Assembly (NCBI GenBank): GCA_007375915.1 | Contig: VMFF01000002.1 | Span: forward strand, 1-26,672 | Direction: 5' to 3' | Source: Candidatus Doudnabacteria bacterium Gr01-1014_77 | GTDB taxonomy: Bacteria > Patescibacteriota > Doudnabacteria > UBA920 > VMFF01 | DNA: 26,672 nucleotides | In this document: positions 2,449 to 14,770 of the stretch, in pieces | Layout: every line of letters begins with the position of its first letter | Numbering within the stretch: the first letter of the stretch is position 1 | Notes under the pieces: model-generated | Told to the model about the DNA's origin: nothing | The model's input: the letters and a program-made list of their open reading frames with translations, nothing else | Database searches by the model: none | Position numbers and translations under genes: made by a program

Positions 2449-2461
2449 AGATTACACTTAT

Positions 2462-3115
2462 TTAAACTTTCTTTATTATTTCTGCAATATATCCAGGTTC
2501 CGAAACCGCGTGTTTGTAGCTGTTTAGTATTAAATCAACTAACTGATCTTTATGTACAAAAGAAACATCAGCAGAAGTATTTTCAATTCCACCCCTCCTG
2601 TTATTAGGCATAACTAAAAGTGCTTCTACCCAAACTTTTTTTCTACAATATGCATTAATGAAATGTTTTAACTTCATTGCACCGCGATGTGATTGGTTTA
2701 AGAAAGCGTGCAATTGTCCGGCATTTGGATGGTAGTGACTCTTAACTTCAATTGCAAAAATTCCTGTTGGACCAATTACTGCAAAATCAATATCACCACC
2801 GTGTCTTAAAGAAAGATCTTGGAAAACATAAAAGTCATGAGGTAATCTGAGAAGCTCTCTTTTGATACTTTCTTCTCCCCAAATTCCTCTTGAAAATCTA
2901 TGAGATCTTTTTTCAAAGAGTTTTGCCAAAGAGTATCCAAGTGGAATTAAAAGAACAATTAAAAGCATCCAATCAGAAAGAGAAGAATAGCTATCAATGT
3001 CTCGTTGGCTTAAATAGCTTAGAAACAAAAACAATCCCAAAGTTATTACAAACAGAAGAATGAAAAGAGTTTCTTTTCTTTGCAGGAAACTGCTTTTTTT
3101 AATGTATATAGCCAT
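2462..3115 (-). CDS. Membrane-anchored NERD (nuclease-related domain) protein
   Basis: Two N-terminal hydrophobic helices, then GIWGEE...GDIDFAVIGPTGIFAIEVKSH, a NERD/PD-(D/E)xK-like signature. Confidence 0.85.
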   Translation of the reverse strand: MAIYIKKSSFLQRKETLFILLFVITLGLFLFLSYLSQRDIDSYSSLSDWMLLIVLLIPLGYSLAKLFEKRSHRFSRGIWGEESIKRELLRLPHDFYVFQDLSLRHGGDIDFAVIGPTGIFAIEVKSHYHPNAGQLHAFLNQSHRGAMKLKHFINAYCRKKVWVEALLVMPNNRRGGIENTSADVSFVHKDQLVDLILNSYKHAVSEPGYIAEIIKKV

Positions 3116-5614: not shown

Positions 5615-6289
5615 GTGAGAGCACATTTAAAACAAAAGGCTTTAAAGCTACGAAAAGAAGGTTGGTCGTACAGCGTCATTAAGAGAAGAACAGGAGTGCC
5701 TAAAAGTACTCTTAGTAATTGGCTTGGCAATTTACCGTATAGACCAAACTCAGAAGTTAGAAAGAGCATGAAAGAAGGACCTTTGCGTTCTGCTGTCATG
5801 CGCAGAAAAGCAAAGATCAGGAACACAAGAGAGATTAAAACATCGGCAGCAAGAGAATTAGGTAAGCTTTCCAAAAGAGATAAATGGATGTTGGGTTTAG
5901 GTATTTATATGGGCGAGGGTTCAAAGACCCATGATAACATCCGGGTTATAAACTCAAATCCAGAAATAATTAAAAGTGCTGTTAAATGGTTTAGTGATAT
6001 TTGTGATGTTCCATTAGAAAATTTTGGTATAAGGGTACATTCGTATCCAGATATTGATGAAAAGGAATGCAGGGCATATTGGTCCAAAGTTTCTGGTATA
6101 CCTTTAAGTCAGTTTTTTAAGAGTCACATAGATACAAGGACAAACAAGTCAGTTTCGAAAAAACATAAGCTACAATATGGAACAGCGCATTTAATAATTA
6201 AGAGTTGTGGAAAAATAAAATTTGGGGTAATCTTACATAGAAGAATTATGGGCTGGATCGAAGAAGCCTATAAGCAAATGCGGGTATAG
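5615..6289 (+). CDS. HTH plus LAGLIDADG-like (homing-endonuclease-like) protein between two tRNAs
   Basis: AGGAGG SD with GTG start; N-terminal HTH (ALKLRKEGWSYSVIKRRTGVPKSTLSNWL); LGLGIYMGEGSK...RVINSNPEII resembles a single LAGLIDADG helix. The stop codon lies inside tRNA-Gly. Confidence 0.7.
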   Translation: MRAHLKQKALKLRKEGWSYSVIKRRTGVPKSTLSNWLGNLPYRPNSEVRKSMKEGPLRSAVMRRKAKIRNTREIKTSAARELGKLSKRDKWMLGLGIYMGEGSKTHDNIRVINSNPEIIKSAVKWFSDICDVPLENFGIRVHSYPDIDEKECRAYWSKVSGIPLSQFFKSHIDTRTNKSVSKKHKLQYGTAHLIIKSCGKIKFGVILHRRIMGWIEEAYKQMRV

Positions 6290-6353
6290 TTTAGTGGTCA
6301 AACGCCTCCCTTCCAAGGAGAAGTCGCGGGTTCGATTCCCACTACCCGCTCCA
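6280..6353 (+). tRNA. tRNA-Gly (TCC)
   Basis: Acceptor GCGGGTA/TACCCGC, loop ctTCCaa, TTCGA T-loop and encoded CCA; contains two C-A mismatches (see findings). Confidence 0.92.
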
Positions 6354-6543
6354 GATATCAATGAATTTAAATTGCGGAATATCCGCATTTTTTTGTCCAC
6401 AAGAATTTTTGGTTGTTCTCATTTGAAACCATGGGGCATAGTCATTGATAAGTAGATATATACTAGATCGTCATGAAGGATGGATAACTAAATTAGCTGA
6501 AAAAGTTGGTTTTACATCTAAGTCACTAAATATAGGTAAACAC

Positions 6544-6565
6544 AAAACCCCCGAAAGGGGGTTTT
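6544..6565. terminator. Symmetric intrinsic terminator
   Basis: AAAACCCCC-GAAA-GGGGGTTTT. Confidence 0.85.
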
Positions 6566-6573
6566 GTTATGGT

Positions 6574-6602
6574 TTGACAATATTACCAAAAGATTATATA
6601 AT
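6574..6602 (+). promoter_or_regulatory. Perfect consensus sigma70 promoter with no credible ORF behind it
   Basis: TTGACA-N17-TATAAT. Confidence 0.85.
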
Positions 6603-6608
6603 GCTTTC

Positions 6609-6777
6609 ATCTTAAACCTTTGTACCAGGTTTATCCACATTATGATTTGTACCATCATAACCATTTTCAAGGGCATTCTGCTGAATACCTTAGGAGTCAA
6701 AGAAATCAGGAAAGTAGAACCAACCACGCTTAAATAGGGGATTTTAAGCGACTTTGTTATACTTTCCTGGTTTTTTT
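6609..6777 (+). ncRNA. Candidate ncRNA of about 170 nt with twin UUGUACC-loop hairpins
   Basis: Consensus promoter; hairpins at 6613-6633, 6640-6660 and 6670-6691; an 11-bp helix (6706-6716/6760-6770) enclosing an 8-bp helix and followed by T7. Confidence 0.65.
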
Positions 6778-6784
6778 ATGCAGA

Positions 6785-6813
6785 TTGTGTTTGCACGCAC
6801 ATGTACGTATAAA
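6785..6813 (+). promoter_or_regulatory. Putative promoter of the surface-protein gene
   Basis: TTGTGT-N17-TATAAA, which implies a 5' UTR of about 250 nt. Confidence 0.45.
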
Positions 6814-7073
6814 AGGAACCGGGCGGTTATTTGAATCAATATATAGAGTGTGTAACAACGCTCTAAGATAGGCGTCAAATAATACGCAACTAGCACTGGA
6901 GTGTCTAGTGTTCTTTATTAATGAAGATTGGTCGATCTCTAGGCGAAAGGCCTTGTAATAGGCTTGCCAGAAGCTAGTTGAAACAGAAAATATATTAATA
7001 ACACTTTTTTTAGACAAAGATTGATTGTCGCATATGAACAATTAATCATACGTTTAAAAAAACGGAGTAAAAC

Positions 7074-10000
7074 ATGCAAACCTCTTTAGCAAAGAAAATC
7101 TTTGCAATAGGTTCAACTTCAGCCATGTTGTTAGCTGCTGTCCCTTTTGTGGCTTCAGCTGCAGTTCATTCTGCTGGAACAAACGTAGTTTCTAACGGAA
7201 CCGTTTATTTCATAAACAGCAATGGTCAGAAACAACCTTACACTTCTGCTGGCGCATTTTTGTCCTATGGTTTTAACACCTGGGCAGATGTAGTAGCAGC
7301 TTCCGCTGAGGATTTGGCTTTGCCTACTGGTTCTTTCGTTCCACCATCAGATGGTTCCCTTATCAATGATAAAGGCACTGTATATTTGATGGTTAACGGA
7401 ATGCCATCAGGCTTTACTACAGAACCAAACTTCTTAGGCTTAGGCTATTCTTACAAGAATGTCTTAGCTGGTGATGTTTCTTTCTTAGCAAAAGGCTCAA
7501 ATATCAGCACAACAGCAATGTCCCACCCAGTTGGTACATTAGTAAACGACAAAGGTACAGTTTACTTAATGACAGCAAGTGGAAAAATGGGCATTCCTTC
7601 TCTTTCAACATTTAATTCCTGGGGTTACAGCTTTGCAAAAGTCGTTCCTGCAAACAGCTACGACTCAGCAATTGCTATGAGCTCTGGAATTATGAATGCA
7701 AGAGTAGCAGGACAATTGAACCCAACAGGTTCAACAGTCAACATTCCCCCAGTATCTGGTAACCTATCTGTAAGCGCAGCTTCAGATATGCCAGTTACTA
7801 GAACATTAGTAATAGGCGAAGCAGTAGCTGATTTGGCTCACTTCACTTTCTACGGTACTGGTACAGTAACCGCAGTTACTTTGAAGAGATTTGGCGTTTC
7901 AGCAGATGCTACTTTGAACAATGTCTACCTCTTTGACGGTTCAACAAGACTTACAGATTCAGCATCAGTCTCATCTGGAAGCACAATCAACTTCACTAAC
8001 GCAAATGGTTTGTTTACAGTTAATGGTTCAAAGACCGTTGCTGTAAGAGCTGACATCCTTTCAACTGCAGCAGCAGGTGAAACAGTCGGTGTTCAGTTAA
8101 CATCAGCAATGAGTGGTTCTAACTCTGTTAGTGGCACTCCTGTATCAGGTAACTTACACACTGTTGCAACAGCTACTTTAGCTACTGTAGCATTGGGTGC
8201 AGTTACTCAATCTGGTGCAACAAACCCAGGCACAGACATCAATGTCTGGCAATCAACAGCAACTGTCTCAACAAGAGACGTATTGATGACAAGATTAGCA
8301 TTGCGCCAAGTTGGCTCAATTGTTTCTGCTGACGTCAATAACTTCAAGTTGTTTGTAGATGGAGTACAGGTAAGCTCAGCAGCTTCCTTGGATTCTAATG
8401 GCTATGTAACTTTTAGCTTTAGCAAAGCATTGACAACAGGCAACAGAACTTTGAAGGTAACAGCAGATGTTATCGGTGGTTCTGGAAGAAATGTAGAGTT
8501 CTCTCTACGTGGTGCTTATGACATCTCATTAACTGATACTCAGTACAATGCAGGTGTTACAGCAACAGCTTCTGCATTCCCATTGGATGGTGGTGCAACA
8601 TTTGCCATTAGCGCTGGTTCTATGACAGTTGTTAAAGCAACTGATTCACAGTCTCAGAACGTTACTTTGGGTTCAACTGACCAATCTTTGGCAAAGTACA
8701 CCTTCACCGCTTATGGTGAACAAATCAAGGTTGAAACCTTGAGAGTCGGTGTTATAACAACTGGTGGAACTGTTACTGAACATACATTGAGAAATGTAAG
8801 AATCTTAGTTAACGGTTTACAAGTTGGTAGCACAACAAACGTCCCAGCTGCTGCAACATTTGCATCAGGTGCTGGAACACAATTCACAACAAACTTCACA
8901 GTAGTCCCTGGTACACCAGCTACAGTTGAAATTCGTGGTGACATTGTAGACTCTGAAGGTACTGACAACATTGCAGCTGGAACAGTTACTGCTGTCCAAG
9001 CTTTGTTGATCGGTGGTACATCAGCAAACAACGCAATTCCACAGGTATCCTTAGGAACCTTGGATGTGCCAACTTCTGACAACACATTAGGTAATAGCTT
9101 AACAATTGCTTCTGGTTCTATGAGCTTGACTCAACAGTCAACCTACGCAAACCAGACAGTTGTTGCTCCTCAAACAGCATACAAAGTAGGTGCTTACAAC
9201 CTAACTGGTAACAGCACTGAAGCAGTCAACCTCAATACTCTTGAGATAGACTTTACTGGTACTACTGCTGAAGAAACTGTCTTAACAGACGTTTACGTAA
9301 AGTATGGTAACCAGACAACAGCTGTTAAAGGAACTGTAACTGCATCAGATAACACATGGTCCATAAGCAGAACATTGGCAGTTAACGAAACAATGCCAAT
9401 TGAAGTTTATGCAACTGTTTCTTCTGCATTGTCTACAGCCACAATCATTACTCGTTTGACAGTCACTGGTATAACAGCATCATCTGGTATTACCACTTAT
9501 GCTGATACCAACTCTGACACAACCAAAGATGCTAACGGCTTCTTGGGTCAAACAGTTACTGGTGTTGCAAACGGAACTTTGACAGCAACTGCTGACGCTT
9601 CAACTCCTGACTCAGCTATAGTTGATGATTCAGGTACAGTAACAACAGCAGCTATTAAGTTTAATGCAGTCAATGATTCATTCACAATCACTGATATAAC
9701 ATTGACACTAGCAGACGCTTCTGCAGTTTCAACTGTTACTTTGATGGACGCTGGTGTAGCAGTAACTGGTGGTTCAAAACCAGGTGCCGCAACTCTAACC
9801 TTCAGTGGTTTGAACATTGCAGTAGCAGCAAACAGCACTAAAGTTCTTGATGTCCAGTTAGCTATGTCTTCAGTAGGCGTAGGTTCTGGTACAGCAGGTT
9901 CTTCATTGCTTACAACATTGACTTCCTTCACATCTCGTTCCTCAAATGGAACATCTGATGTTTCAGGAAACGATGCAGGTCCTTCAATCGAGAACGACCC

Positions 10001-11087
10001 AGCTGGTAACGTTATGTACGTTTACCATGCAATTCCTACAATCACAAACGTAACTTTGCCAACTTCAATTTTGGCAGCAGGTACACAGGTTGTATCCAAG
10101 TTCACCGTTTCTTCTGGTGGAACTGGAGCAATTAGCTGGCAGAAACTTGTATTCACAGTTGCAAGAAGCATCGGTGGTACAGATACTCTTGCCACAACTC
10201 AATTGTGGAATTCTGATACAAACACTCAGATTAGTGGTACTGTTGCATACACTGGCAGCGTAGAAGCTGACAATGGAACAGCTGGTACTATTATCTTTGT
10301 TGCAAACTCAGAACAGGCCGTTAGCGGTGCTAAGACCTATGAATTGAGAACAACAATTGCTGGAACCGTAGGAACAGGCGATTACATCTCTGTTAAAATC
10401 GCTCAACCTTCTACTTTCGCAGCTTCAGCAGCAGCATTTGCTTCACATACTGATAGCAGTGCTTCATACGCTGACGTTGACGCAAGCGGAGCAGTAACTG
10501 CAAACGATATTCGTTTGACAGCTCAAGTAACAGTGGCTTCTGGGTACGCTCAGACAAACACTGGTGTAGCTACATTCTTAACATCAGACACAACAGATGA
10601 AGTTCAGTCTTGGGGTACAATTACCACAGGCAGAACAATAATCTTGACTGAAACTGGTGCTACAAGCAACATAATTGGTGCAATCACTGGTACTTTAGTA
10701 TCAACTGATGCATGGACCTGTGCTGCATATACTGCTGCAAACGGTGGTGGTTCAACAACTACAACTATTGCAAGCATTCTTTCCATCAAATGTACCAAAG
10801 CTTCTGTTGGTCAAGTTATCTTGAACACAGCAGCTCTAGGTGCTAACGCTGGTATCGAAGAAACAACAATTACTTTGACAACCACAGCTGGTGGATTGGC
10901 AGCAAACGCAGTCGTCGCTTCAACTGATTCCGATCTCGGATTCACATTGACCGGCGGTGTTGCTGGTGCTGCAAGCTTTGTCTGGTCTGACCAGAATAAA
11001 GCTGCTCACAGCTCAACAACAACTGACTGGACCAACGGAGTATTGGTTAAGAACTTACCAACTTCAACTCAAACATTGAGCAAATAG
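7074..11087 (+). CDS. Large exported S-layer-like surface protein, 1337 aa
   Basis: Signal peptide ending ASA-A; duplicated N-terminal module (INDKGTVYLM / VNDKGTVYLM); T/S/A/G/V-rich beta-strand repeats; strongly biased codon usage suggesting high expression. Confidence 0.8.
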   Translation: MQTSLAKKIFAIGSTSAMLLAAVPFVASAAVHSAGTNVVSNGTVYFINSNGQKQPYTSAGAFLSYGFNTWADVVAASAEDLALPTGSFVPPSDGSLINDKGTVYLMVNGMPSGFTTEPNFLGLGYSYKNVLAGDVSFLAKGSNISTTAMSHPVGTLVNDKGTVYLMTASGKMGIPSLSTFNSWGYSFAKVVPANSYDSAIAMSSGIMNARVAGQLNPTGSTVNIPPVSGNLSVSAASDMPVTRTLVIGEAVADLAHFTFYGTGTVTAVTLKRFGVSADATLNNVYLFDGSTRLTDSASVSSGSTINFTNANGLFTVNGSKTVAVRADILSTAAAGETVGVQLTSAMSGSNSVSGTPVSGNLHTVATATLATVALGAVTQSGATNPGTDINVWQSTATVSTRDVLMTRLALRQVGSIVSADVNNFKLFVDGVQVSSAASLDSNGYVTFSFSKALTTGNRTLKVTADVIGGSGRNVEFSLRGAYDISLTDTQYNAGVTATASAFPLDGGATFAISAGSMTVVKATDSQSQNVTLGSTDQSLAKYTFTAYGEQIKVETLRVGVITTGGTVTEHTLRNVRILVNGLQVGSTTNVPAAATFASGAGTQFTTNFTVVPGTPATVEIRGDIVDSEGTDNIAAGTVTAVQALLIGGTSANNAIPQVSLGTLDVPTSDNTLGNSLTIASGSMSLTQQSTYANQTVVAPQTAYKVGAYNLTGNSTEAVNLNTLEIDFTGTTAEETVLTDVYVKYGNQTTAVKGTVTASDNTWSISRTLAVNETMPIEVYATVSSALSTATIITRLTVTGITASSGITTYADTNSDTTKDANGFLGQTVTGVANGTLTATADASTPDSAIVDDSGTVTTAAIKFNAVNDSFTITDITLTLADASAVSTVTLMDAGVAVTGGSKPGAATLTFSGLNIAVAANSTKVLDVQLAMSSVGVGSGTAGSSLLTTLTSFTSRSSNGTSDVSGNDAGPSIENDPAGNVMYVYHAIPTITNVTLPTSILAAGTQVVSKFTVSSGGTGAISWQKLVFTVARSIGGTDTLATTQLWNSDTNTQISGTVAYTGSVEADNGTAGTIIFVANSEQAVSGAKTYELRTTIAGTVGTGDYISVKIAQPSTFAASAAAFASHTDSSASYADVDASGAVTANDIRLTAQVTVASGYAQTNTGVATFLTSDTTDEVQSWGTITTGRTIILTETGATSNIIGAITGTLVSTDAWTCAAYTAANGGGSTTTTIASILSIKCTKASVGQVILNTAALGANAGIEETTITLTTTAGGLAANAVVASTDSDLGFTLTGGVAGAASFVWSDQNKAAHSSTTTDWTNGVLVKNLPTSTQTLSK

Positions 11088-13411: not shown

Positions 13412-14770
13412 TTACGGCGCGGGCGGGTTAATGCAGAGTGACGGTGCAACAGCACCGGAGATCCCAGGCTGCGCGCAGCTGTTGCTACCAGCTGCGTTCG
13501 GGACCTGGTTGTTGTTGATGAAGACGAACTGGAGCCGGAACCAGACATCGTTCGCGGTCCAAATTTTGTCGGCGACGTAGCTGATGGTCAGACCACCAGA
13601 TGCAGTCGCCATGCAAGTCTGGAAGGTGATGAAACCATTCGGCGACATCTGCCCGCCGTTTATCGCCACGTTGTTGTTGCAGCCAACGACACCGCTTTGC
13701 AGCAACCCGAGTTTGCTGCTTGAGATGCGGTGCGTCGTCGTGCCTGTGACGAACCAGGAATTCGCGAGTGTGGGCGGTGTGGTGCCGCCAGTGAACTGCG
13801 TCACCGGTTGCACAATTGCGGGGGTGATACCAGTGATTGCGCCGAGGGTGACACCGGCTTTCGAAACCAGGTCGACACCGACTGAGGCGGCGCTCGTTTG
13901 GTTGGCCGTGTGACCTTGCGTTCCTTGTAAGAACGCCTTGACCACGGTTGTTCCAGTCGAACTGTCGGCGCGCGTTTCGAGTGTCACGCGCTGGCATTCG
14001 TCGATCGGACGCCCCACCGCAGCCGGCGGGGTCAACCAGTCGACACACCCTTCGTACGTGTTGACGATTGTAGCCGGTGTGCCCGTGGAAGTGAATTCGA
14101 CGGTGTTCGTAATACCAGCCGCGGCCGCCCGGAGCTTGTGTATGCCTCCGATGGGACCAGCGAGCCAGTTGCCAACAGTCGCGATTCCCGTGGCGTTCGT
14201 GGTCGCCGAACCACCGGTGATGCTTCCAGAGCCACCAGTGACAGTGAACGTCACCGAGACTCCAGCCATTGTGGCACCGGTTTCATCGAGCACCTTGACC
14301 GACGGTTTCGTCGCGAATGCGGTGTTGCCGGCAGCCGTTTGTCCGTCGCCGGACAGCTTCTGGAGTGACGTAGCGATCGGTACAGTCGCTGTTGCGGTAA
14401 ACGTCGCACATGTCGTGACGCCCGCGACGCAGGCGTTAACCGACTGGCTTCCCGGCGCACTGCCGAGTGTCCAGTTGGTCTGCGCGTTGCCCGAGGCGTT
14501 GGTGGTGGCATTTCCAGTGACCGTGCCTCCGCCGATTGCCGTGAACGTGACCGAGGCGCCTGAGAACGCAGCGCCGTGCTGGTCGAGCACCTTGACGACG
14601 AGGGCGTTGGTCAGCGCTACGTTGATGCGCGCTGTCTGACCGCTGCCGGATACAGCGACGATGCTTGCTGCCTTCAGCGGTTCGACCGGTGAGTCCTTCT
14701 TGCAACTCGCCGTGAACAACGTTCCTGCGGCTGCGAGTGCAGCCATGAGGTACTGCAACTTCGTTCGCAT
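13412..14770 (-). CDS. GC-rich lipoprotein with two Big-1/invasin-like Ig repeats, 452 aa
   Basis: Lipobox FTAS-C23; two SGxGQTA...VKVLD..GA...G.SVTFT...GG repeats; AGGAG SD. Confidence 0.85.
   Translation of the reverse strand: MRTKLQYLMAALAAAGTLFTASCKKDSPVEPLKAASIVAVSGSGQTARINVALTNALVVKVLDQHGAAFSGASVTFTAIGGGTVTGNATTNASGNAQTNWTLGSAPGSQSVNACVAGVTTCATFTATATVPIATSLQKLSGDGQTAAGNTAFATKPSVKVLDETGATMAGVSVTFTVTGGSGSITGGSATTNATGIATVGNWLAGPIGGIHKLRAAAAGITNTVEFTSTGTPATIVNTYEGCVDWLTPPAAVGRPIDECQRVTLETRADSSTGTTVVKAFLQGTQGHTANQTSAASVGVDLVSKAGVTLGAITGITPAIVQPVTQFTGGTTPPTLANSWFVTGTTTHRISSSKLGLLQSGVVGCNNNVAINGGQMSPNGFITFQTCMATASGGLTISYVADKIWTANDVWFRLQFVFINNNQVPNAAGSNSCAQPGISGAVAPSLCINPPAP

Follow-up and report, generated by a model that had tools for sequence, protein, structure and literature searches.

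Attenuators of the pyrBI type in Escherichia coli, and with them the trp and his leaders, place a short open reading frame (ORF) and a terminator between a strong promoter and the gene; the encoded peptide is unimportant, and the translating ribosome occludes the 5' arm of the terminator. S-layer genes with very high expression, such as those of Lactobacillus acidophilus and slpA of L. brevis, show a second arrangement, with tandem promoters and long stabilising 5' leaders (PMC3666127). A third point of comparison is given by the promoters of extracytoplasmic function (ECF) sigma factors, whose consensus has AAC at -35 and CGT at -10, CGTC being recognised by sigX, sigM, sigW, and sigV of Bacillus subtilis (PMC5758882). 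Elements of all these kinds meet upstream of a giant surface-protein gene in Candidatus Doudnabacteria bacterium Gr01-1014_77, a groundwater member of the candidate phyla radiation (CPR) with a genome assembly of 600 kb in 82 contigs (~87% complete). Here we describe segment 6574-6777 of a stretch of 26,672 nucleotides (positions 1 to 26,672 of contig VMFF01000002.1; the window), which we regard with high confidence as the genus-specific form of a conserved unit, P1, in which a consensus promoter is followed by a short structured RNA and a covarying terminator. With the same high confidence, this unit is fixed across the order 5' of an ECF-type promoter, P2, and the surface-protein gene.

The locus resembles the pyrBI-type attenuators in its strong promoter, its short ORF with a seemingly unimportant peptide, and its terminator before the gene, and here too the 5' arm of the terminator would be covered by a ribosome translating the ORF. 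It differs from these and from the trp and his leaders in that the ORF is mostly leaderless, an ECF-type promoter follows the terminator, and neither inspection by eye nor the predicted folds yielded an antiterminator; in addition, the genus of the source genome has twin hairpins in place of a canonical start, and the gene encodes a surface protein and is not a biosynthetic operon. With slpA it shares two tandem promoters and a long, structured, untranslated leader in front of a surface gene; unlike those of slpA, its promoters belong to different sigma classes, with a conserved terminator between them and a mini-ORF upstream, and the protein is only a candidate S-layer protein. The parts are of known kinds (intrinsic terminator, leader-ORF geometry, ECF promoter, tandem S-layer promoters); the leader itself appears to be undescribed in Rfam and in the literature that we found, and both the combination and the twin-loop module appear to be new.

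The reading we favour, tentatively and at somewhat less than an even chance, is that the P1 unit acts in cis as a translation-coupled attenuator. The segment would then be the first of two tandem transcription units controlling the surface-protein gene, P1 giving a structured RNA of ~169 nt, with a long, conserved terminator and a run of seven U (U7) at its 3' end, and P2 giving the bulk of the mRNA. A ribosome on the short ORF would keep the terminator from forming, allowing read-through from P1 into the gene; when there is no translation, P1 would give the short RNA only.

The P1 unit and its terminator

Coordinates are window positions, on the + strand unless marked. The unit and its immediate surroundings comprise:

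6542-6567, + strand: intrinsic terminator with an 11-bp stem, a GAAA loop, and a T-rich tail, insulating P1 from upstream transcription
6574-6602, + strand: P1, a sigma-70 promoter (TTGACA 6574-6579, 17-nt spacer, TATAAT 6597-6602), 12/12 match in the promoter scan
6613-6633, + strand: hairpin 1 (HP1), TAAACCT/TTGTACC/AGGTTTA, 7-bp stem, 7-nt loop UUGUACC at 6620-6626, -5.1 kcal/mol
6631-6639, + strand: TTATCCACA box, made of the last 3 nt of HP1 and the single-stranded linker UCCACA, equal to the DnaA-box consensus
6640-6660, + strand: hairpin 2 (HP2), TTATGAT/TTGTACC/ATCATAA, 7-bp stem, loop UUGUACC at 6647-6653, -3.1 kcal/mol
6665-6696, + strand: hairpin 3 (HP3), three short helices with single-nucleotide bulges between them
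6699-6777, + strand: long hairpin with U7, the predicted intrinsic terminator of the P1 transcript, -31.5 kcal/mol, z = -7.2
6851-6876, + strand: P2, an ECF-sigma-type promoter (TGTAAC 6851-6856, 16-nt spacer, CGTC 6873-6876), ~75 nt past the terminator

P1 is one of four perfect consensus promoters in the genome, and the promoter scan found no further sigma-70 promoter scoring 9/12 or better on the + strand between 6603 and 6964; transcription would start at ~6609. RNAfold of 6609-6780 (172 nt) returns the helices listed above at -47.8 kcal/mol (z = -5.1, with 0 of 200 shuffles as good), arranged as four independent hairpins and with the 5' end unpaired with the 3' end. The last of them has a core at 6706-6770, a CAGG...CCUGG foot, an inner helix at 6727-6750, and a U7 (6771-6777) that pairs with the A-tract 6699-6705. 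As predicted, it thus combines the stable hairpin, the G+C-rich foot, and the U-tract of an intrinsic terminator; a simple terminator scan misses it because its loop is long and branched. In these respects the first-pass annotation of the segment, which had pointed out the perfect TTGACA-N17-TATAAT promoter, the two 7-bp stems with identical UUGUACC loops, the third hairpin, the nested helix ending in T7, and the strong terminator upstream, was accurate throughout.

The same annotation had called the unit an orphan, which it is not. Orthologues of the surface protein occur in 119 of 121 genomes of the order, and 29 orthologous loci have enough upstream sequence for comparison; a TTGACA-N17-TATAAT promoter of the P1 type lies 320-830 nt 5' of the orthologous ATG in 28 of them (12/12 in 21, 11/12 in 7). 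Between P1 and P2, 27 of the 29 leaders have a strong hairpin with a T-run, typically of 60-80 nt and -20 to -39 kcal/mol, so that the predicted P1 transcripts measure 91-171 nt. For the 14 lineages with a CAGG...CCUGG foot the hairpin could be aligned pair by pair: compensatory double changes are seen in 12 of 17 pairs, and 93% of cells are paired, compared with 79% after shuffling (0/500 reach the observed value) and at most 55% with a slid partner. The hairpin is therefore a real, selected structure of the + strand RNA, which bears out the strong terminator-like 3' end proposed for the segment at the outset. In lineage L052, P1 lies only 27 nt 5' of P2 and no hairpin is present; there, P1 would therefore feed the gene directly.

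On the 5' side, the sequence beyond the -35 box cannot be aligned between species, and synteny and alignability resume exactly at the -35 box of P1. The interval between the tRNA-Gly gene and P1 (6384-6573) is a variable insertion spot, which here measures ~190 nt and contains a solitary terminator; its length is 1.3 kb in genome G001 and 3.7 kb in G002 and G004.

At the gathering threshold, Rfam matches in the window are tRNAs only, as they are at 20 orthologous loci, and at E <= 10 the region 6200-7200 gives sub-threshold, chance-level matches only; the segment thus remains the undescribed structured RNA for which it was first taken. The models for the small and large bacterial signal recognition particle (SRP) RNA (RF00169, RF01854) and for 6S RNA (RF00013) match nothing in 13 genomes of the order (G000-G013), even 100% complete ones; the SRP RNA of the order may be too divergent for current Rfam models. 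6S RNA is a rod of ~150-200 nt, closed by 5'/3' pairing and with a large central bubble. The P1 RNA was considered as the missing SRP or 6S RNA and rejected, having neither a GNRA-capped domain IV nor the 6S rod, so that the possibility of a known family such as 6S, which had been left open at first, has not materialised. A purine-riboswitch-like three-way junction was likewise set aside, as no closing P1 helix of that kind is seen by eye. As a small RNA with a sequence repeated in its hairpin loops it recalls CsrB/RsmZ, and a sponge of this type had been suggested; it has only two loops and no GGA, and CsrA (PF02599) was not found in the 4 genomes of the genus, one of them 100% complete. ANTAR target RNAs also have two adjacent hairpins with matching loops 5' of a terminator; here the loops are of 7 nt and are not hexaloops with A1 and G4, and HP2 ends 38 nt before the terminator, without overlap. 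Lacking these defining features, the RNA supports neither a CsrB-like nor an ANTAR-like reading. The ANTAR domain (PF03861) gave no match, in a search whose control matched nowhere either.

Reading frames leading into the terminator

The P1 transcripts of 26 independent leaders were compared. In 13 of them an ATG lies 9-12 nt past the -10 box, at +3 to +6 of the predicted transcript, and there is almost none elsewhere in the first 36 nt. The ORFs that begin at these near-leaderless starts have 11-61 codons and their peptides share no motif; none of the 13 ends more than 14 nt short of the hairpin foot, those with greater reach entering the hairpin. From shuffles, 6.5 of 13 would be expected to extend so far, and the +2 frame does so in 7 of 13 (joint P 4e-5, with the -14 threshold chosen post hoc, on data already seen). 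The arrangement extends beyond this locus: of 146 genomes of the order, 78 have a perfect promoter with an ATG 8-11 nt past its -10 box, with more than 120 occurrences in all, against 4 for the reversed control, and leaderless mRNAs from consensus promoters thus appear to be common in the order.

In the genus, the P1 RNA has no 5' AUG. It had been described as having no credible ORF, a view that needs revision, since two frames are free of stops from 6609 to the terminator apex:

6620-6733, + strand: candidate leader ORF in the frame of the loop UUGs, 37 codons, both loop UUGs in phase, stop UAA at 6731-6733
6642-6737, + strand: second open frame, an AUG ORF of 31 codons, its AUG within HP2, stop UAG at 6735-6737

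All six stop triplets of 6609-6730 fall into one frame, leaving the other two open for ~40 codons (152 of 20,000 shuffles), and of the 20 AY dinucleotides 16 are in the same phase (21 of 20,000 shuffles), giving the segment a 3-nt periodicity. The UAA of the first frame sits in the inner helix of the terminator and the UAG of the second opens its apical loop; both frames thus stop at the terminator apex, as do those of lineages L054, L051, L043, and L042. A short ORF whose stop lies at or in the terminator, as is characteristic of attenuators, is accordingly found for all 13 ORFs of the other lineages and for both frames of the genus.

For the genus we compared six variants, from four species of the Genome Taxonomy Database (GTDB) and two metagenome contigs. 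In the loop-UUG frame, 12 of whose first 23 codons are for Tyr, His, Asn, or Asp, the variable sites are distributed over the three codon positions as 4/4/8 (re-phased); the AUG frame is open in 6/6 variants, and its peptide, which begins with the hydrophobic MICTIITIFKGILLNTLGV (6642 onward), is not conserved, with variable sites distributed as 4/8/4. By analogy, ORF geometry and an unconstrained peptide before a terminator make up the layout of a ribosome-coupled attenuator and, less specifically, that of a small gene. In this second case, the P1 RNA would be the mRNA for a peptide of 28-37 aa, or for the hydrophobic one of 31 aa in the AUG frame, and the hairpin an ordinary gene-end terminator. 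The two open frames, the periodicity, the hydrophobic start of the AUG-frame peptide, and the near-leaderless ORFs of 11-61 codons ending at the terminator in 13 other lineages could all be accommodated in this way; the peptides of the different lineages have neither a length nor a motif in common, the changes within the genus are mostly non-synonymous and lower the hydrophobicity, and a Shine-Dalgarno sequence is lacking, making a small-protein gene highly unlikely.

For a translation-coupled attenuator in the genus, the near-leaderless AUG would have been replaced by the strictly conserved succession of HP1, the UUAUCCACA box, and HP2. This block is best read as a genus-specific 5' module of the cis-acting leader. 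It carries candidate starts, namely an exposed UUG in each loop and the AUG at 6642-6644, buried in the 5' arm of HP2, and would probably act as a gate for entering ribosomes or on the stability of the 5' end, in which a bivalent ligand or a loop-loop (GUAC:GUAC) contact may be involved; a ribosome could melt HP1 and HP2 because both are weak (-5.1 and -3.1 kcal/mol).

Several observations weigh against an attenuator. None of the candidate starts of the genus, UUG or stem-buried AUG, is preceded by a Shine-Dalgarno sequence; the variant of G002 has an insertion that breaks the frame between the two loops; the substitutions among the six variants mostly change amino acids in both frames; and HP3 evolves by compensation at the RNA level. 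P2 alone could account for the gene being expressed, an ordinary small gene would likewise have an ORF that extends through a short transcript as far as the terminator, and the alternative pairing of an antiterminator is missing, as noted above. Transcript ends and read-through are themselves predictions from the DNA, and the model leaves the identity of the loops beyond their GUAC core unexplained.

An alternative is a stand-alone, non-coding small RNA (sRNA) of ~169 nt, always terminated and acting in trans or on a protein. A separately terminated transcript may well be made, because P2 lies 3' of the terminator. The strong covarying terminator directly after the RNA, the gene's own downstream promoter, the RNA-level compensation in HP3 and the terminator, and the invariance of a 49-nt block in both stems and loops (see below) fit such an sRNA well, as does the onset of HP1 ~5 nt from the predicted 5' end, which is reminiscent of 5' stabilisers. 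The twin loops could then form a bivalent protein platform, or the UCCACA linker a seed, and the position next to the surface-protein gene would reflect co-regulation and not read-through. For the genus in particular, where 5' AUG and Shine-Dalgarno sequence are absent, this reading is viable, given the loss of the canonical start and the strength of the terminator. It leaves unexplained, however, the near-leaderless AUG and ORF geometry elsewhere, and the periodicity and the two open frames here. Targets and partners are not apparent either: RNAduplex of the P1 RNA against the P2 5' untranslated region (UTR) is insignificant in six lineages (z -0.6 to +1.9), the genus genomes lack a detectable CsrA, the ANTAR search is uninformative as described, and the twin loops are seen in one genus only. 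Nor does the loop sequence behave like a seed. TTGTACC occurs 3 times in the window (2.9 expected) and 70 times in the genome (~73 expected, by a composition estimate), so that neither it nor its complement GGTACAA is enriched in the genome, and no other hairpin-displayed copy was found there; the antisense or seed-loop function with GGUACAA targets that had been envisaged finds no support in these counts. On balance, we consider an sRNA doubtful.

The twin hairpins and the TTATCCACA box

HP1 and HP2 have perfect stems of unrelated sequence and the same loop, the two loops being 27 nt, that is 9 codons, apart. Among 1852 hairpins and 88 neighbouring pairs in the 600-kb genome, this is the only neighbouring pair with identical loops; when loops are permuted among the hairpins, such a pair arises in 79 of 2000 trials, so that genome-wide uniqueness is modest evidence that the twin loop exceeds chance. 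Comparative invariance is stronger evidence: none of the 49 sites of the block 6612-6660 varies among the six variants, against 19 of 47 in the flanks (Fisher p = 1.2e-7), within a region of 500 nt, from the -35 box to the ATG, that is 90-96% identical between species (flanking genes 75-89%). The one irregularity is a 1-nt insertion in the linker just 5' of HP2 in G002. When metagenomes were scanned with the box and the terminator foot as anchors, 3 true matches resulted, each carrying the block unchanged.

The combination of divergent stems and identical loops had been taken to indicate selection on structure plus loop. As the stems never vary within the genus, HP1 and HP2 show no covariation there, and the difference between the two stems is one between two sites and not covariation. 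HP3, by comparison, shows two compensatory pairs (A-U to G-C in 3 of 6 variants, G-C to A-U in 1) and several G-U intermediates, which pair on the + strand only. Homologues with conserved UUGUACC loops, which the first-pass annotation had proposed to look for elsewhere, were not found in the leaders examined, those of 25 orthologues outside the genus. In the genus, the P1 RNA is 30-50 nt longer than in other lineages, and the excess corresponds to the region of HP1, the box, and HP2/HP3; as judged from these comparisons, the twin loops appear to be a young, genus-specific, and very tightly constrained addition.

Candidate reasons for the identity of the loops are a bivalent protein ligand and a loop-loop pairing through the self-complementary GUAC; side-by-side packing would be allowed because the 7-bp stems are of equal length and the linker has 6 nt. 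A third candidate, of low probability, is mimicry of the anticodon arm of tRNA-Tyr, whose loop has the U-G-U-A of UUGUACC at positions 2-5 of its 7 nt; as a pattern, this resemblance is real. The least that tRNA-guanine transglycosylase (TGT) needs for recognition is U-G-U at positions 2-4 of a 7-nt loop, and a UGU minihelix within a larger RNA, the hairpin of Shigella virF mRNA, is a TGT substrate in vitro (PMC1950534). HP1 and HP2 agree with these substrates in having U-G-U at the anticodon-equivalent positions of a 7-nt loop within a larger RNA, and differ in their 7-bp stems, in the C at the equivalent of position 37, and in being two. On this reading the hairpins would bind, titrate, or be modified by TGT, and the state of queuosine would in this way be coupled to a leader frame that abounds in the four codon families decoded by queuosine-containing tRNAs, to which the 12 of 23 codons with their significant phasing would correspond. 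TGT is encoded in 4/4 genomes of the genus, which says little because TGT is near-universal in bacteria, and the assembly contains no tRNA-Tyr gene for comparison. Further, the mini-ORFs of other lineages show no excess of NAY codons (~19%), and the argument is wholly post hoc. We therefore regard tRNA mimicry as very improbable.

The part of the module that reaches beyond the genus is the box between the hairpins. TTATCCACA, or as a 9-mer TTATNCACA, is identical to the DnaA-box consensus of E. coli and B. subtilis; it is the only part of the twin-hairpin module common to other genera and is found exactly 28 nt past the -10 box in at least seven lineages from three families, with 22 intervening nt that have no sequence relationship and no fold in common. 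A possible reading is control at the level of DNA, in which DnaA would block or tune P1 from a site at +22 to +30, compatible with the RNA-based readings. As the intervening nucleotides are unrelated and fold differently, the constant distance fits the geometry of RNA polymerase better than an RNA motif. A gene for DnaA is encoded in the genome, and in 5 relatives the motif is enriched (64 occurrences, against 19 for the reversed control), with clusters of 3 boxes at G004:C5:88317-89302 and G002:C14:6581-7566, which may mark oriC. On the other side, the box is kept in only about a quarter of the lineages, no cluster lies within 1.5 kb of dnaA in the 5 relatives, and the conserved string runs on into ...TATGG in several lineages and is read in frame as Tyr-Pro in three. 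A role for DnaA here is possible, if rather doubtful. The two 21-bp palindromes could in principle also serve as operators; unrelated arms around a shared asymmetric centre are the opposite of normal operator design. The 12 sites of TTATCCACA/TGTGGATAA in the genome show no preference for translation starts. A second box, at 6393-6401 just past the tRNA-Gly terminator, matches perfectly in G002 and G004; its sequence here is TTGTCCACA.

P2 and the surface-protein gene

In a k-mer comparison of the leaders, TGTAACA and GCGTC stood out as further shared elements. TGTAAC and CGTC occur together in 29 of 30 leaders, separated by spacers of 16 (23 cases), 17 (5), or 18 nt (1) of unrelated sequence; with two boxes, a fixed spacing, and a free spacer, this therefore looks like a promoter, whose start would lie at ~6883-6886. 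There is one exact copy of P2 in the genome, and one exact site per genome throughout the genus. The same motif lies 3-7 nt 5' of the start codon of an ECF-size sigma gene in the complete genomes G117 (G117:C1:645848-645873) and G042 (G042:C1:900926-900951), which belong to two other families; both genes are orthologous to a small sigma gene on contig C81 of the source genome. P2 therefore has the features of an ECF promoter, with AAC at -35, CGT at -10, a spacing of 14-17 nt, and a copy at a sigma gene, the latter by way of G117 and G042. This suggests an ECF-size sigma factor that is autoregulated, translated from a leaderless mRNA, and dedicated to the envelope protein. The fixed spacing of TGTAAC-N16-CGTC, the free spacer, and the motif in front of sigma genes in two relatives recall the promoters of sigX, sigW, sigM, and sigV in B. 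subtilis; unlike in the ECF autoregulation known there, no P2-like motif was found 5' of the three small sigma genes of the source genome, and the C81 orthologue carries an extended -10 promoter of the sigma-70 type instead. In genome G000, contig C40 has a 167-aa gene of the sigma-70 family and of ECF size at ~2459-2908 (- strand), in an unusual position directly after an apparent rplL (L7/L12).

Downstream of P2 follow:

6884-7073, + strand: P2 5' UTR of the surface-protein mRNA, with a 5' hairpin at 6892-6912, GGTCGATC at 6930-6937, a hairpin at 7020-7046, and the Shine-Dalgarno sequence GGAG at 7064-7067
7074-11087, + strand: surface-protein ORF, 1337 aa, secreted (signal peptide by eye), rich in Thr, Ser, Ala, and Gly; candidate S-layer or major surface protein

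The last ~95 nt of this UTR can be aligned across the order (nhmmer). Their hairpin ATTGATTGT-N9-ACAATTAAT (7020-7046), just 5' of the Shine-Dalgarno sequence, is the most conserved leader element of the order, TTGATTGTC being present in 18 of 25 leaders; by eye, variants elsewhere show compensatory changes and G-U pairs (ATTGATTAT/ATAATCAAT; ATTGATTGT/ATAATCAAT), and the hairpin may serve as an operator in translation or stabilise the mRNA. In 12-15 of 25 P2 5' UTRs, GGTCGATCT is conserved together with CTCTAGAGC, which comes after it (here at 6930-6937).

For region 6200-7600, assembled contigs from three metatranscriptome runs and one DNA-like run were surveyed. In three RNA libraries, which stem from different studies, the contigs span 6909-7124, 6924-7600 and beyond, and 6964-7210, continuing into the ORF; their starts lie 25-80 nt 3' of the predicted P2 start and are a weak hint at most in its support. 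None covers 6388-6904, which at the low depth of the contigs is uninformative on expression. From the promoter and terminator predictions, the surface-protein mRNA probably starts at P2, and U7 is probably where all or most of the P1 transcripts end. The 1337-aa protein has no Pfam family. Further downstream, at 13412-14770 (- strand), lies a 452-aa ORF with Big_1 Ig-like repeats and a local G+C content of 50-58%, against ~36% elsewhere.

Gene regulation in the CPR, or Patescibacteria, is almost uncharacterised, with few members cultured. The locus described here amounts to an order-wide regulatory architecture, defined by sequence, for what is probably the most abundant envelope protein; in it, a consensus sigma-70 promoter is joined by a leaderless mini-ORF and a covarying terminator, and further by an ECF-type promoter with a likely autoregulated sigma factor and by a conserved 5' UTR hairpin. 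The initial picture of an orphan sRNA is thereby corrected, the conserved elements being the terminator, the ORF geometry, and the TTATCCACA box. A further conjecture, which we consider improbable, joins these parts into a three-part switch, not described before, that would set the output of the surface-protein gene: a sigma-70 promoter of consensus sequence, bearing a DnaA box at +22, a leaderless mini-ORF on which the ribosome would open a 65-nt terminator, and a dedicated ECF promoter; in the genus, the twin tRNA-Tyr-like minihelices, standing in for the mini-ORF start, and the Tyr/His/Asn/Asp-rich frame would tie read-through to the queuosine/TGT state. If this were true, transcription of the surface-protein gene would sense translation capacity.

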